Made by a program: the position numbers and the translations under genes. A stretch of DNA of 13,652 nucleotides from Candidatus Nanohalobium sp. (GTDB lineage: Archaea > Nanohalarchaeota > Nanosalinia > Nanosalinales > Nanosalinaceae). Under the pieces are notes generated by a model, which made no database searches, was not told where the DNA came from, and saw only the letters and a program-made list of their open reading frames with translations. The DNA lies in NCBI GenBank assembly GCA_042217555.1, contig JBDGSL010000069.1, forward strand, positions 1 to 13,652, given 5' to 3'. Within the stretch, counting starts at the first letter, position 1, and each line of letters begins with the position of its first letter. This document shows positions 2,188 to 12,054 of this stretch, piece after piece.

Positions 2188-3681
2188 ATGGATTTTGAGA
2201 GAGTTCCTAAGATAACGAAGTATATGGCACTGACGTCCTCTCCGCCCTGAAGGACGGAGGTTCCCAATAATGGAAACAACCATCCAAACACAACGGACTT
2301 CGGAACATCCGAAGCTTCAGAGGTTTACACTCCCCCTACCACACGCTTTGATATACAGGGAACATGCTTCCAACAAGGATTGTTCAAGACACCGCCAGCA
2401 GTGCCCCAGTACTACCAGCACCACCACATATTCAATGCGGCAGGAGTATAGCCCGGTCCCCAATCAATACAGATATCGGTTTAAACACTTAAAAACAGAC
2501 AGGGCGATTCCTCTCCGAGCTAAAACACGGAACCTCCTCACCCCAAACAGGTGAAAATGCTTTTTGCCTGGTTTGGCAGAAACACTGTATGGAACTTTCT
2601 ACCGGTTTTCTTCAAGAATAACATGGATTCCGTGTTTCTTGTAGGTGTCCTGACTTCGGTTCCGAGCTTTGTCACGATTTTGTTGGATATACCTGTAGGG
2701 AACCTGGTTCAGAGGGCTGGTGAGAAAGTTGTGATCTACATGGGTTTTATCTCTGCTCTTTTCCCTCCACTGTTATTTTACGCAGGTATCGTTCCAATGT
2801 TCTTCCTGGGAAAGTTTATGGAGGGGGTTGGCAAGGCGTTCATCTGGAACGGTGGCTGGAGCCTGATCTTGAAGAGCTCTGACAGTGATGTTGAGTCTGA
2901 AAATGTTTCAGTCTTCCTGCTGGGTGTTAATCTCTCTGTAATCATCGGCCCGATTATCGGAGGGTTTCTCTTGGCAGGTTACGGTTTTAACCTGCTTTTT
3001 ACTATCTGGGCTGGTACCTGGCTATTATCGATAGCATTGTACTATGCGTATATCGGTACTGAGAGAGGGGATGAGGGCCTGAAAGAAGGTCTGGATCACC
3101 TGGAGAGAAGAAGGACCTACATGGATGACTGGCATCACTTGAAGGATCACTGGATTGATCTGAGGAAGGTTCTCTCACTTACATTCCTGTACTCGATCAT
3201 CTTCTCGTTTTACTGGGTGGCGATACCTCTTATCCTTAACCAGATGAAGGCAGATTACACGATGATGGGCCTGGTATTCGGGGTAGCGGCTCTTCCAAAG
3301 GCCTTCCAGTTCGTGTTCGGAGACATGGCTGACAAGTATGGTGAGGAGAGAATCATAGCAGCTATGTCTTTCCTTCTTATCCCGACACTGTTTTCGATGT
3401 CTTTAACTGAAAGTAAACTTTTGATCGGAGGCCTCTTCTTTATGGCACAGCTCTTTACCTCGGGTATTGTCCCTGCAGTACACTCCAAGTTTGACTCTGC
3501 GATCCCGGATGATATAGAGGGCGAGATGACAGGTTTCAATGAACTGGCGAAGCACAGTGGGCAGACGATTGGGCCTGTTCTTGCCGGCACACTTGCCTCG
3601 ATCTGGAGTATCAAAGCCTCTTTTATGGCTGCAGCAGGTGTGACTGCTTTAATCCTGATAACCACATTAGTTGATTTTTGA
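2188..3681 (+). CDS. MFS transporter interrupted after codon 14 by a 321-bp element (join 2188..2229, 2551..3681; 390 aa restored)
   Basis: About 12 hydrophobic segments with MFS motif-A-like loops (GNLVQRAGEK, GDMADKYGEER) and IGPIIGG/IGPVLAG. The upstream ATG at 2188 gives MDFERVPKITKYMA in the same frame as VKMLFAWFGRN. With the element present, reading from 2188 stops at TGA 2248. The gene is either disrupted or expressed from GTG 2551 / ATG 2557. Confidence 0.9.
2230..2465 (-). ncRNA. Putative structured RNA (TnpB omega-RNA/reRNA-like) inside the element
   Basis: Several stems pair well only on the minus strand because they use G-U pairs (2394-2419; 2456-2461 with 2358-2363; 2439-2446 with 2333-2340). 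There is a perfect hairpin at 2298-2314, TATA-like boxes upstream, and the region ends at the IS right end. Folding was by eye and boundaries are approximate. Confidence 0.6.
2480..2495 (-). promoter_or_regulatory. TATA-like promoter inside the element
   Basis: Minus-strand TTTTTAAG (2488-2495) and TTTAAA (2480-2485) lie about 20-30 nt upstream of the first stem. The same motifs precede genes at 6303, 7654 and 12164. Confidence 0.5.
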
Positions 3682-4410
3682 CAGTTCCGGAAAGTCAAAC
3701 AGGCCTGCCTCACGTGATACGGCCAGGGCCTTCATTGAATTTTTATCTATGAACTCGCGCAGGATAGGTGAGAGAAGCTCGCTTGAAGGCATGTTGTTCA
3801 CACCGGATCCGTTTGAGATAGTGGAGAAAGCCGGCATCACTATCAGAGCCTTTCCGTTGTCGTTCCTGCCGTACAGGAAGCAGTCTACTTTTTCCTTCAC
3901 TCCTACATCGTCTTTTAACTCCAGAGCAGGATGTTCATGGCCTATAACCACTGTCTCAAAGTCTTCATCGACTTCAAGGTCTTCCAGTGAGATATGGCCG
4001 TGGGTGAAGAGAACTTTGTCTTCCAGAAAGTATTTCTTCAGCTCGTATCCTTTCTCTTCGATAATTGATTCTATAAATGTATCGTGGTTGCCTTCTATAA
4101 GGATCAGTTCCTCGAAAAGATCTTCCGCCTCCTCTATGAACTCTTCTATCTCCTCTTTCTCCGAGTACAGACTGGTTTTGAACTCGTTTTTCAGATCGCC
4201 GTTGACAAGCAACCTTGTTGCGTCAGTCCGTTTCTCCAGTTCATGTAGATCTTCCAGTAGTTCATCAAGCTGGAACTCTGGCACGTAACTTCCTTTCGAT
4301 GTCATTCCTCCTTCTAGGCCTAGGTGAAGGTCCGATAGTACGAGAAGGTTCATTCCGGAGTGGTACAGCGCCGGTTTTCTGTCAACAGTTTCAAACCCGT
4401 AGATTTTCAC
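3667..4410 (-). CDS. Calcineurin-like metallophosphoesterase (SbcD/Mre11-related, COG1407-like)
   Basis: Motifs SDLHLG, NGDLK, GNHD, THGH, GHEHP and MPAFS. GTG at 4410 (VKIYGFETV) is preferred because the listed 4458 start overlaps the DUF58 gene; the start is uncertain. Confidence 0.9.
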   Translation of the reverse strand: MKIYGFETVDRKPALYHSGMNLLVLSDLHLGLEGGMTSKGSYVPEFQLDELLEDLHELEKRTDATRLLVNGDLKNEFKTSLYSEKEEIEEFIEEAEDLFEELILIEGNHDTFIESIIEEKGYELKKYFLEDKVLFTHGHISLEDLEVDEDFETVVIGHEHPALELKDDVGVKEKVDCFLYGRNDNGKALIVMPAFSTISNGSGVNNMPSSELLSPILREFIDKNSMKALAVSREAGLFDFPELSKIN

Positions 4411-7563: not shown

Positions 7564-7653
7564 CTCTACATCAACAATGGTTTCCGGCCGGTTTTAACTT
7601 TTTAGACAGTATACTATTTTTAAGTAGAAGCAGTTTCAATTACTTTCTTGAAT

Positions 7654-9300
7654 ATGAGCCATGGAGGCAGCCTTCCAGACACCTGCAAGTTCGGACACAT
7701 AATCGAGTCCGAGGGAGGAAACAAAGGATTGAAGAAAAAGATCAGGAAAGGAGAAATAGAAACCCTGTCCGACCTGAGAGAAGAAGACGCAGGCATAATA
7801 GACCTTCTGGGAAAATGGAAACACATCAAGGTATCTGCAGGAAGCCAGGGAGACGGTTTCAAAGCCGTATTTATCGCTGTAGACGAACTTGATACAGGTA
7901 AAGACTTCAATACTCACAAAGTAGACGAGTCTATACATATATCGCCACAAAGCAATTTTCACAGCGAGTTCATGCAGAGGAAGCAGCAGGCCGAGCAGAA
8001 TATCAAGCAGACGATGCAGAGCTACCAGCAGCTTATAAAGCAGAAGCACATGCTGGAACACGATGTCAGAAAACTGAGGAGCCGTGTAGAGGCGATAGAG
8101 TCAAAGGATGAGACATTGCTTAAAGGCGACTTTATCGAGCTTGTGGACGGCGCCGGACAGAGCCCACGTCAGGGAGGCGACCAGATGAGTTTGAAGGCGT
8201 ACCGCGACCAGAACATCTATCCTTCTATCGTAGCGGACTTCAACGAGATGGAATCTGTAGACGACCTGAAGACAGCCAAGCAGAAGGCCGAGGATGCAGA
8301 AGACAAAGACCCTGAGGACTTCAGGGACGGCGCGCTAGCTGAACTGCCGACGAACGAGAAAGCTGTGTTGAAGAAGAAGTACAGGATGTACCAGCAGTGG
8401 AAAGACCTGTACGGTTCAGAAGTCTCCCGGAAACTGGACGAACTGAAAGGCCAGCTGAGGAACGTGGAACGAAGTATCGAGGAGACAAAAGAATGGCTTA
8501 AGCCGTACGTCAGGGACGTATCGATGATAAACAAGATGGGTGACGACCAGGCAAATCTGACAGGCCCAACCAATATACGTGGAAACTCTACGATGATCAG
8601 AAGCCTGGACTACATACTGTACAAAGGTATGCGGCTGGAAGACGGAGAACTGACGTATGCAGAAGGCGAGGAAGCCACACATTACAGAGTAGTATACATC
8701 AAAGGAGTTAACGCCAACCTGGCCGGGTTTTCACAGCCACAGTCACCAGCTGAAGGACCTTCCGCAGGCATCGTCCAATGGTTCCCGGCGTTCGTATGCA
8801 AACACGTGTTCGAGAACATATTCAAGCCAAGAATCAACGAACACGAAAACAAAGTAGAGGAAGTTATGGAAGACTATGTCGGAGGATTCAAACCCTCCAA
8901 AGAAGGAAAAACACTCAGAGATAAACGCCAGGAAGAAGAGATGTCAGTAAGAGAACTCAGAGAAAAAATAGAGGAAGAACTAGAGGAAGAAAACGTACCT
9001 GTAGAGCTCTCAGCCCAGATAAGACGGATAGAAGACGGTATGGAACCTGTCAACACTCTTAACGGAAAATACCTGGAAGCCATAGACAGCATACTTGACA
9101 CCGAGTTCACAGAAGACGAAGACAACAGAGACAATGAAATGGTCAGCGGACTGCAGGAAAAACTTCTGAAGTTCACAGGGAAAACCGACCCCTTCTACAT
9201 GGAAAACCCTGAACAAGGCCTGATAGAACACGAAGTAGACCTCAGATACGACTACTACTGGGGATTCAAAATAGGCCTCGGACTTTACACAATGAAGTGA
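7654..9300 (+). CDS. Uncharacterised coiled-coil protein (548 aa) with an XRE-like HTH near the C-terminus
   Basis: Long ORF; ATG 7654 is preferred over TTG 7648, with TATA-like TTTTTAAG at about 7617-7624. It has two coiled-coil stretches and the segment GKTLRDKRQEEEMSVRELREKI...SAQIRRIEDG. Confidence 0.85.
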   Translation: MSHGGSLPDTCKFGHIIESEGGNKGLKKKIRKGEIETLSDLREEDAGIIDLLGKWKHIKVSAGSQGDGFKAVFIAVDELDTGKDFNTHKVDESIHISPQSNFHSEFMQRKQQAEQNIKQTMQSYQQLIKQKHMLEHDVRKLRSRVEAIESKDETLLKGDFIELVDGAGQSPRQGGDQMSLKAYRDQNIYPSIVADFNEMESVDDLKTAKQKAEDAEDKDPEDFRDGALAELPTNEKAVLKKKYRMYQQWKDLYGSEVSRKLDELKGQLRNVERSIEETKEWLKPYVRDVSMINKMGDDQANLTGPTNIRGNSTMIRSLDYILYKGMRLEDGELTYAEGEEATHYRVVYIKGVNANLAGFSQPQSPAEGPSAGIVQWFPAFVCKHVFENIFKPRINEHENKVEEVMEDYVGGFKPSKEGKTLRDKRQEEEMSVRELREKIEEELEEENVPVELSAQIRRIEDGMEPVNTLNGKYLEAIDSILDTEFTEDEDNRDNEMVSGLQEKLLKFTGKTDPFYMENPEQGLIEHEVDLRYDYYWGFKIGLGLYTMK

Positions 9301-9306
9301 AACACA

Positions 9307-12054
9307 ATGGACTTCATACTGAAACGGTTAAAAGACAAGTTTGGAGACGAAGAAGGAGACGAAGAAAGAAACGGTTTCCCCGACCTAAACTACCTGATCG
9401 GAGAATCATCCGCAATGGACATGGGAGAGTTCCCAACACCAATGGACCAGAGAATAGGACAGGCATCAATGGTAGGCGGAGAACTGATGGAACTCCAGAT
9501 CACCAACCCCGCCACATTCGAACTGGAAGGCAACTCCATGATAAGAACCATCGACCAGCTCGGCCTCGACGTAACACTCCACCCAGACATGAACGCAGGA
9601 TTCTGCACAGCAGAAAAAAGCGCCAGAGGAGAAGAATACGGCTACGACACAGTCGAACAATACTTCACAAACTACCTACAAGAACTCGCATACTTCAAAA
9701 AAAGAGTCCAAGAACAAGGCGGAGAAAAACCCTTATTCAACATCGGCCGAATGAACCCACACATATCCACCTCCCCAATGCCTCCTCTCGACGAAAGAAT
9801 GGCCAACGACGTAGGAGTAGACCCATTCGGATTCGAGATAGGCAACGGAGACCAAGACGCGATGAAAGCCAGAAACCACAGAGGGCAAAACATCTGGGAA
9901 AACAAAGAGTTCCTCAAACGAGTATACTACACATTCTTCGTAGAAGAAGTAGAATTCGCATTCCAATACTACAGCATGTTCGGCCGATACTCAAACAAAT
10001 TCGAAAAAATATGGGAAGACGCACAGAGAGAAGCTACAAATAAATTCTACAAACACAGAACCGAACAACTACCTGATAGATTATACAATGAAGTTCAAGA
10101 GAAAATCAAGATTCTAAGGACTGCTCAGGCACAAGATAGAGGGATAGAAACCGACTGGTTGGACATACTAGACGATAAGACAATCCAATTTCCTTTCTAT
10201 ACTGTGGTCACTGAGTCCAAAACGGAGGAATTCGAAGATCCTACCGGCAATACTAGAGAAAGAATATCAGAAGTAGAAATTACAGACATACAAACAGAGT
10301 ATCGAGAAGTTCCTCCAGAATTCCTAAGAGAAAGAGGCTTCCGAAGCTTCCAGCAAATGTCTCAAGCCGTTCACAGTGTAGAAAACATGAATCAGATACC
10401 GCAAGAAATGTTCGAAAACATAATAGTCGATATCATAGACGAAAACGACGTAGACGTCAGCCATTTATTGAGGCTTGGCGCCAGGGATACTTTAGACGAG
10501 AAATTTGCCGAAGACATGGATAAAACACGTGAAAGTCTCTATAATTCACTCAAGTCAGGTTTTAACGAGCTTTGGACCGGCGATGAAATAATTTCCATAG
10601 ACGCAAAAATAGCAGCTCTAGAGAATCATCACGATATTCAACCGAGAAGGATTCAGGAGATTGCGTATGAGGTTGGTATTGAGGGAGATAAGACGTTAGA
10701 TCATCATGCTGAGAAAGTTTTCATGGGAGAGCCTGAGTATTTCGAGACGGAGGGGCCGGAGGAGGATCTGGAGCTTGACAAGCATAAGGAGCTTTTGAAG
10801 AACCTGATTCAGAACTTTGAAAGGGAGATGTGGAAGGAGTCGAATCTTTTCTACAAGATTATCCCGGCCTGGATGAGTCAGGCCAATAAGCTTCAAAACG
10901 ACAAGCATAACGGGTGGAAAGCACCAGAGTTCATCTGGGAAACTATCGTTGAGGACAAGTGGGAAGATCGTGACGACGTTAACCTGGATTTAACTTCTCC
11001 TCGTAATGGCATCTTTGACGACGATGACGAAGATACCTATCACTACCTTGATCTGTTGGAGGAGAGTGAGGAGTTCCGTATGGATGTGGCTGCGGCTGTC
11101 GGTGCTTGTTATGCGTGGGGGCATTATACGCAGAGGAAGGTTCAGTTTGATTTGAAGGGCCGTGACTTCGGTTTAAGTGATGAGGAGGCTCAGGAAGTTG
11201 AGGGCGAAGGCTGGACCTGGATCGAGTGGACGAACCGTTTTGGTCTTGGCGTGAATCTGGAGACTATGGCGGGCAGTCCTCAGATGCGTTTCAAGGTGTG
11301 GAGGCCGAAGGATATCTCTGTGACAGCTCATGCCATCAACCTTACTGCCAGGACCAAGCTGGAGAGGGATGGTGAGCTAGGTGGATTAGATCATATGCAT
11401 GAGGAGTTGGATGGGTGTCCTGCGAAGTTCACGATCGATATGGAGCATGTAGCGACTTTGGGCGCGCCGCCTATGCATGAGATGGAGGAGTTTATGCAGC
11501 AGGAGGAAGAGTTGGCAGGTTCCGACTGGAAGCTTGATATTGACGAGGATAAGCCTGTTGCCAAGATAATGAGGCAGATACATCTCATAGATCCTGGTGT
11601 AGAATCTCAGAGAGGAACACACCATGGAGCCATTGAGAGAGGGAACAGGCAACTTTACACGTGGCTTTACCGTTTTGTAGAAGAAGGATTTGCGCGTAAC
11701 GAAGACGAGCCTGCTACGATCCTCTTCGAACTTGCGGAACACAAGGGAGAGTCCAGCTACGTAATGAGGATTATGATGGATCTTATACAGCTTGGAGTAG
11801 AACCTGAAGACCTTGACCCCTCACGCGTCGACCCGGGCAGCAAACCAGGTTCAGAGGAGGAAGCACTTATCGCCCGCTTCTACGGAATCGACAGAACAAA
11901 CTACAACCGTGAATGGGCCAAGATAGAAGAACACGCATTCGACCCACTGAAAGGCTTGCTGGAAGCTGAAGAGTTTGACTACAGCTACTCAGGAAGAGCT
12001 GCAGTAGAGAACGACAACCGGCCGCAGGAATGGAATTCAGAGGAGTACCGGTAG
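9307..12054 (+). CDS. Large TIM-barrel protein of the xylose-isomerase-like / AP-endonuclease-2 superfamily, with a big internal insertion
   Basis: Strand-end motifs appear in superfamily order: VTLHPD, MNPHIS, [about 490 aa gap], VNLETM, FTIDMEHV, QIHLID, HHGAIERGN, ILFE. It starts 6 nt after the previous stop. Confidence 0.75.
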   Translation: MDFILKRLKDKFGDEEGDEERNGFPDLNYLIGESSAMDMGEFPTPMDQRIGQASMVGGELMELQITNPATFELEGNSMIRTIDQLGLDVTLHPDMNAGFCTAEKSARGEEYGYDTVEQYFTNYLQELAYFKKRVQEQGGEKPLFNIGRMNPHISTSPMPPLDERMANDVGVDPFGFEIGNGDQDAMKARNHRGQNIWENKEFLKRVYYTFFVEEVEFAFQYYSMFGRYSNKFEKIWEDAQREATNKFYKHRTEQLPDRLYNEVQEKIKILRTAQAQDRGIETDWLDILDDKTIQFPFYTVVTESKTEEFEDPTGNTRERISEVEITDIQTEYREVPPEFLRERGFRSFQQMSQAVHSVENMNQIPQEMFENIIVDIIDENDVDVSHLLRLGARDTLDEKFAEDMDKTRESLYNSLKSGFNELWTGDEIISIDAKIAALENHHDIQPRRIQEIAYEVGIEGDKTLDHHAEKVFMGEPEYFETEGPEEDLELDKHKELLKNLIQNFEREMWKESNLFYKIIPAWMSQANKLQNDKHNGWKAPEFIWETIVEDKWEDRDDVNLDLTSPRNGIFDDDDEDTYHYLDLLEESEEFRMDVAAAVGACYAWGHYTQRKVQFDLKGRDFGLSDEEAQEVEGEGWTWIEWTNRFGLGVNLETMAGSPQMRFKVWRPKDISVTAHAINLTARTKLERDGELGGLDHMHEELDGCPAKFTIDMEHVATLGAPPMHEMEEFMQQEEELAGSDWKLDIDEDKPVAKIMRQIHLIDPGVESQRGTHHGAIERGNRQLYTWLYRFVEEGFARNEDEPATILFELAEHKGESSYVMRIMMDLIQLGVEPEDLDPSRVDPGSKPGSEEEALIARFYGIDRTNYNREWAKIEEHAFDPLKGLLEAEEFDYSYSGRAAVENDNRPQEWNSEEYR

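Follow-up and report, generated by a model that had tools for sequence, protein, structure and literature searches.

The window, a stretch of 13,652 nucleotides that constitutes contig C66 of a 1.31-Mb genome (G000, 94% complete), contains an MFS transporter gene interrupted by a 321-bp element that is, by every sequence feature tested, a PATE, that is a non-autonomous IS200/IS605 element. The PATE is real and recent and probably active. It is inserted in the gene after a TCAC target, and we think it rather probable that it descends through loss of tnpB from an archaeal clade of elements in which tnpB and its omegaRNA are arranged back to back, and that it would now work as a self-contained guide cassette favouring its own retention. 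A bolder version, put forward tentatively and with somewhat less than even confidence, is that the PATE is a ready-made guide-RNA gene of an undescribed archaeal IS605 clade in which a Cas12f-like TnpB is transcribed in the direction away from an HgcC-type omegaRNA with a separate promoter. On this view TnpA and TnpB come in trans, and the PATE is driving through a conserved single-copy transporter gene of a natural population and has been caught in mid-sweep with both alleles present. The features concerned are listed with their strand and, in brackets, their basis.

2188..2229, plus strand: MFS codons 1-14, the native N-terminus (orthologue collinearity 19/19, translation)
2210..2229, minus strand: predicted omegaRNA guide segment, host DNA antisense to MFS codons 8-14 (from TnpB biology as given in the available part of PMC10055086)
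2230..2550, minus strand: 321-bp PATE, no target-site duplication (orthologues, contig joint 2229 to 2551)
2230..2263, minus strand: right end, with guide GAAC, 8-bp hairpin with TTCA loop and cleavage site TCAG (sequence, clade flanks)
2230..2470, minus strand: predicted omegaRNA scaffold, extending to the right end from an approximate 5′ start (Rfam, homology, fold, covariation)
2270..2554, plus strand: 94-codon ORF, antisense to the omegaRNA (no Pfam match)
2479..2495, both strands: TATA-like boxes (2495 minus, 2488 plus), predicted divergent promoter region (motif scan)
2513..2550, minus strand: left end, with 14-nt leader, guide GAGG (2536-2533) and imperfect hairpin (2532-2513) (sequence)
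2551..2554, minus strand: target TCAC, kept in the flank, left cleavage site and predicted TnpB TAM (sequence, empty joint)
2551..3681, plus strand: MFS remainder, 376 codons, intact (Pfam MFS_1, E 6.5e-37)

The interrupted transporter gene

The MFS_1 gene at 2551-3681 was found as a single copy in G000 (one match in the genome search); relatives of it are present in 33 of the 40 other genomes searched, and its protein is 61-63% identical to orthologues from the genus. Removal of the 321 bp at 2230-2550 gives an ORF of 390 codons from ATG 2188, with the element site after codon 14 and the TCAC target at codon 14/15, while in the filled allele translation of the native frame ends after 20 residues, inside the right-end hairpin. 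Among the strongest matches returned, all 19 orthologous loci share an N-terminal motif, 14 codons of which precede the junction without a gap (15 start with ATG and 4 with GTG), and the insertion was found in none of them. The first-pass annotation, made from the window alone, had described an intact non-autonomous IS200/IS605 element of 321 bp splitting the MFS gene, with precise excision restoring the ORF, and the collinear orthologues, in an alignment of the kind that it had suggested, bear out the insertion and the restored ORF. It had also used the reading frame as evidence for the boundaries; the ORF is indeed restored, but many nearby in-frame deletions are also open, so the frame alone cannot fix the ends, and they are fixed instead by the 19 orthologues together with a metagenomic contig that joins 2229 to 2551.

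An ORF of 376 codons from GTG 2551 remains behind the plus-strand TATA-like box of the element, and so the insertion may fall short of a full knockout. The Pfam MFS_1 match begins at residue 4 of this ORF.

Ends of the element

Read in minus-strand order, the left end has TCAC (2554-2551, outside the element), 14 nt, GAGG (2536-2533) and an imperfect stem of eight positions (2532-2513), and the right end has GAAC (2263-2260), an 8-bp stem with a TTCA loop (2259-2240), 6 nt and TCAG (2233-2230, inside). As first claimed, the left guide GAGG pairs with TCAC and the right guide GAAC with TCAG under an IS608-type rule, and the IS608 guides and sites quoted in support match the available part of PMC5934647, a source that gives the IS608 sites along with two of the three guide pairs. 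Three defined guide pairs at both ends would arise by chance with a probability of about 2.4e-4. The third of these pairs is that at the fourth position of guide and site. The hairpins claimed for both ends are present, but as isolated DNA they fold no better than shuffles (z -0.83 and -1.03). Both ends have subterminal imperfect palindromes, terminal inverted repeats are absent, and neither target-site duplication nor microhomology is present at the junctions, the former having been foreseen and now borne out by the seamless empty joint and the orthologues. The left end aligns with those of three loci of the tnpB clade described below (L074, L058 and L076), of the tnpA-bearing element on contig C11 and of a further PATE on contig C29, so that related ends, for which a search had been proposed, do exist in a tnpA element and in the clade. 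At the other end, in 38 distinct clade flanks, sequence conservation ends directly after the right-end motif.

There is no transposase gene in 2230-2550. The sole ORF there, of 94 codons, is likely incidental, though its stop overlaps GTG 2551; its first 23 amino acids match a gene-caller N-terminal extension of a tnpB relative (P0022, E 7e-7). Across 2534-2554, bases of the left end are able to form a short hairpin with the flanking target sequence, and this hairpin spans the cleavage site.

Filled and empty alleles

DNA of the window is present in two salt-lake metagenome runs of one study, X1 and X2, of which X1 may be the source of the G000 assembly; the window stretch was not found in run X3, which is no proof of absence. 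X1 has the filled allele only and X2 has both. A single X2 contig joins 2229 to 2551, skipping the 321 bases with 0 ambiguous letters at both likeness settings and retaining TCAC, which is also common to both PATE copies and to a tnpB-bearing relative on contig C1; at a depth of 5.2 and with 30 letters on its short side it is borderline by the search rule. The corresponding filled junction has a depth of 18.1, these being rough depths and not cell shares. Since the X2 flank contigs (1500-2229 and 2556-3800) have no differing letters, the empty allele does not come from a distant strain. It may be ancestral rather than excised; the two states look alike.

In X1 the element is represented by a single contig of 329 nt, which has a depth of 64.5 and shows no differing letters; its joints lead to two right-end flanks (39.6 and 38.8) and to two left-end flanks (38.2 and 35.9). 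An identical second copy, of the sort that the first-pass annotation had proposed to look for at another TCAC, is present; its left flank is the terminus of contig C23 in G000, immediately ahead of a small conserved gene, and its right-end flank was not found in G000. The two sites share 8 nt ending in TCAC, an 8-mer present at 40 of the 8519 TCAC sites in the genome, and the 4 nt more than the TCAC rule needs could, on the strength of these two sites only, reflect extended target pairing. X2 has in addition a variant copy with three substitutions (window 2364, 2408 and 2423), two of which turn predicted U-G pairs of the RNA described below into C-G (energy from -92.4 to -96.9) and one of which breaks a predicted U-A pair. 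In the 49 other genomes of the family that were searched no further full copies were found, only end matches of 33-34 nt in 3 of them, and no junction of right end to left end, as in a circle, is among the joints listed in the runs. That the insertion is recent, as initially proposed, is supported by the identical second copy and by the empty allele in the sister run, the latter also supplying the empty junction that had been predicted.

A predicted omegaRNA and its promoter region

What the first-pass annotation missed is an internal predicted omegaRNA, which takes up most of the element and would bias the locus towards staying interrupted. On the minus strand, 2217-2330 scores 34.6 bits (E 4.7e-6) against Rfam HgcC (RF00062), and as the gathering score is 50 the RNA is not a formal member of the family. 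The sole extended match of the element in G000 is C1:44945-45149, with 68% identity over 215 nt. The RNA from 2470 to 2230 folds at -92.4 kcal/mol (z -3.29, with none of 200 shuffles as good), and the z of its C1 counterpart, -1.21, does not set that RNA apart from shuffles. Compensatory change is seen at 21 of 63 predicted pairs in an alignment of four homologues, a count made with no shuffle control, and an RNA model built from four sequences finds L058 and L074, both outside its training, at 64.4 and 56.6 bits; it matched 2 of 69 other genomes, one of them a training sequence. Other Rfam matches in the window, to snoRNA and lncRNA families, were rejected as chance.

The TATA-like boxes of the PATE align with the position of the C1 TATA box (alignment with C1, L061 and L057), and from sequence the region is predicted to be a divergent promoter such as would lie between tnpB and omegaRNA in the parent clade. 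A sigma-70 promoter scan was set aside, the host being archaeal. For the guide segment at 2210-2229, a 14-nt match with at most 1 mismatch occurs in G000 at the MFS locus only, and in the empty allele the segment would directly adjoin TCAC.

A clade with tnpB and omegaRNA back to back

The C1 relative (G000:C1:44945-46351; L031, L045) is an element of 1407 bp whose tnpB, on the plus strand, ends in the left-end hairpin beside the TCAC target, and whose right end and omegaRNA occupy the minus strand. The TnpB has 364 amino acids, Pfam OrfB_IS605 and Cas12f1-like_TNB domains and, by eye, all three RuvC acidic motifs; its best solved relatives are of Cas12f type. A flanking GTPase gene regains the length of its relatives (5 of 5) once the element is removed, which confirms the ends independently. 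The right end of the element supplies the stop codon of that GTPase gene.

A profile from an alignment of 23 homologues found 43 clade loci in metagenomes and 13 in the genome_contigs collection, among the titles of which are Thermococci, Methanophagales, Methanosarcinales, Archaeoglobaceae and Micrarchaeota. A single-protein scan of genome_contigs had given nothing where the alignment scan did match; viral_contigs gave no clade match and plasmids only TnpB matches of about 30%. Among 48 loci with enough upstream DNA (clade matches plus C1, some of them duplicates, and with L046 dropped as a duplicate of L057), the right-end tail is upstream of tnpB and antisense to it in 45 and upstream on the sense strand in 1, and the right-end motif is downstream of tnpB in none of 41 clade loci, by a pattern tuned after viewing the same loci. 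The canonical IS605/IS1341 layout, with omegaRNA and right end downstream on the same strand, is thus not that of the parent clade. As a control, 2 of the 4 other tnpB genes of G000 match the right-end motif downstream and none does so upstream. That the clade ends are merely mislabelled was considered and rejected, given the variable flank past the upstream end (over 38 distinct flanks, positions inside the end show 1.0-2.0 bits of conservation and those beyond it no more than 0.28) and the TCAC flanking at both resolved empty sites. Of 9 clade loci tested, 7 match HgcC, in each case upstream of tnpB and antisense to it, and 3 of these score above threshold. In the literature searched, mostly open-access main text, no back-to-back parent layout was found, and the layout is absent from the available parts of PMC10691335 (where 'opposite' and 'antisense' occur 0 times), PMC4615843 and PMC12558985.

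Because its left end is close to those of L074 and L058 and the RNA model finds both, the PATE is most simply a clade element minus its tnpB, and derivation from the back-to-back clade by tnpB loss is, on comparison of sequences, likely. It is not a direct derivative of the C1 element, the left end of which differs. With the back-to-back layout in 45 of 48 loci, loss of tnpB would leave a self-contained guide cassette.

Clade left ends tend to lie close to genes: an ATG-led ORF starts 3-12 nt later at 17 of 33, compared with 20 of 271 background sites. The boundaries in this survey were hand-picked, and from the 48 loci (L048-L100 range) 8 in which no end was found and 7 that were duplicate or doubtful were dropped. 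TCAC is the complement of the archaeal ribosome-binding core, GTGA, and at several loci the element end completes GGAGGTG. Location at ribosome-binding sites may reflect survival bias or a safe-harbour habit. At L074, beyond the left end, the element is set in a tandem repeat with an 11-nt unit, and the repeat runs on through the empty site.

Proposed mechanism and alternatives

The sole tnpA-bearing element in the genome is on C11; its tnpA (132.5 bits, no stops) is intact, and the tnpB of the element contains an N gap and seems to be out of frame. The left hairpin of this element (C11:15170-15260, L030) resembles that of the PATE and carries a 57-nt palindromic insert in its loop, an insert that can be likened to the small repeats that target such hairpins in Haloquadratum. 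A candidate pair, intact tnpA on C11 and intact clade tnpB on C1, is therefore present in one genome. In the available parts of the sources, excision by TnpA leaves no scar, the empty joint is then a substrate for TnpB cutting and the element is brought back by recombination, and PATEs often carry omegaRNAs for which TnpB is needed in trans (PMC10055086); standalone omegaRNAs function in trans (PMC10691335), and related standalone RNAs were mapped to their own BRE/TATA promoter (PMC3124441).

In the guide-cassette reading that we prefer, TnpA would act in trans on the single-stranded ends, with scarless excision or insertion, and the internal TATA box would drive the omegaRNA past the right end, so that some 20 nt of the MFS gene, read as the reverse complement of 2210-2229, would become its guide. 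TnpB of the C1 type would load this RNA and cut at TCAC plus guide, a target found in the empty allele only (with the predicted TAM taken to be identical to the TnpA target), and repair templated by a filled copy would bring the insertion back. With TnpB cutting the empty allele and repair proceeding from the filled copy, the locus would flicker but drift towards filled, which would be selfish retention and not a host switch. The C1 TnpB may fail to load the PATE omegaRNA, however, as identity is only 68% and the left ends differ, and the persistence of the empty allele in X2 (5.2 versus 18.1) speaks against retention, since efficient cutting should deplete it. Also counting against the guide-cassette reading are the HgcC score under the gathering threshold, the shuffle-like fold of the C1 counterpart, covariation drawn from four sequences, an empty joint seen in a single contig, and the 57-nt insert in the left hairpin of the tnpA element itself.

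The same low identity to the sole cognate-type omegaRNA of the genome, the coexistence of empty and filled alleles and the abundance of PATE-like remnants in G000 and in halophiles (PMC3119063, available part) would also suit a passive PATE, moved by TnpA in trans, with an omegaRNA that is silent or has no compatible TnpB and an empty allele either ancestral or excised; the full-length scaffold with compensated stems, the retention of its TATA-like box and the presence of an intact clade TnpB make this rather unlikely. Compatible with the guide-cassette explanation is a near-neutral rewiring, in which the former tnpB promoter of the element points outward and would drive a transporter lacking no more than its first 14-16 residues from GTG 2551 or ATG 2557. 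The plus-strand box at 2488, the intact 376-codon ORF with its Pfam match from residue 4, the dominance of the filled allele in X1 and X2 and the frequent placement of clade left ends at ribosome-binding sites of downstream genes (the 17 of 33 above) accord with it, against which by eye there is no clear ribosome-binding site at the usual distance from either start, and the lost residues, conserved in 19 of 19 orthologues, abut helix 1. We regard rewiring as somewhat unlikely.

The role suggested in the first-pass annotation, a reversible switch of the transporter, here in the form of a domesticated on/off device worked by regulated TnpA excision, is not supported: nothing points to regulated excision and the empty allele may be ancestral. 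Excision would restore the MFS ORF exactly, X2 has both alleles where X1 has the filled one only, and tnpA is intact; yet any scarless element restores the frame automatically, an identical copy is present at an unrelated site and the insertion is in 0 of 19 orthologous loci. We consider a switch very improbable. Least credible of all is an assembly artefact with a repeat mis-joined into the MFS gene. In the assembly graph the two copies of the element are collapsed into one, and no listed run piece spans the whole stretch, but the junctions of flank and element are crossed by X1 records (1500-2259 and 2529-3800) and an X2 record (2200-2263) by no more than 22-34 letters on their shorter side, the TCAC rule is obeyed at the site, and the flanking sequences are two halves of one gene.

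The locus is a complete natural test case: its ends are known exactly, both alleles are present, and the one small genome has candidates for TnpA and for the cognate TnpB, so that the trans action proposed for PATE-borne omegaRNAs can be tested directly. With a back-to-back parent, one deletion would be enough to produce a guide-only element that has a promoter of its own. The same layout links the HgcC RNA family with one particular TnpB clade and draws attention to a compact predicted nuclease of 364 amino acids whose guide need not come from its own mRNA.

Other elements and genes

Further PATE-like or solo-end elements of G000, with other interiors, are at C29:39480-39900, C15:3965-4380, C12:34760-35150 and C29:21670-22000, with more such sites at C76:18650, C12:42359 and C78:5990-6040, the last of which looks like a core deletion of about 50 bp with left and right ends fused. 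Elsewhere in the window, 7648-12054 has two large acidic ORFs (550 and 915 amino acids, no Pfam match) adjoining a MoxR AAA / DUF58 / DUF7502 cluster and a nucleotidyltransferase gene, and 1290-1631 has an ORF of 113 amino acids, with no Pfam match and by eye a likeness to the histone fold, of which high-depth relatives about 83% alike are present in the runs.

Comparison with known systems

PATEs and standalone omegaRNAs are already known. Those of Haloquadratum walsbyi, as described in the available part of PMC3119063, are alike in near-terminal palindromes, absence of terminal inverted repeats, target duplication and transposase, identical copies at new sites and core-deleted relatives in the genome; the present case differs in its host, which from genome size, habitat and acidic proteins is probably a nanohaloarchaeon, in a parent traced to a back-to-back tnpB clade and in having an empty allele within one population. 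IS608 of Helicobacter pylori likewise keeps its target outside the left end on the 5′ side, has a 4-nt guide 5′ of each hairpin and leaves a scarless donor joint, with TTAC/AAAG and TCAA/GAAT in place of TCAC/GAGG and TCAG/GAAC, and the PATE is without tnpA and tnpB (PMC5934647, as available). Standalone and PATE-borne omegaRNAs share with the present one a scaffold at the right end, a guide derived from the flank and predicted cutting of the empty site, but in the available parts of the same sources (PMC10055086, PMC10691335) omegaRNAs are downstream of tnpB or overlap it on the same strand, whereas in the present case the cognate tnpB is directed away from the RNA, for which a separate promoter is predicted. 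HgcC (RF00062) and Pyrococcus sRk48 and sRk52 have the same right-end UUCA tetraloop and are transcribed as standalone copies from a BRE/TATA promoter (PMC4615843, PMC3124441, in the parts available); the PATE RNA is longer than HgcC and below its gathering threshold. These RNAs are related in the same sources to the sense 3′ end of tnpB, in contrast to the clade loci that pass the HgcC threshold, in which the match is upstream of tnpB and antisense to it.
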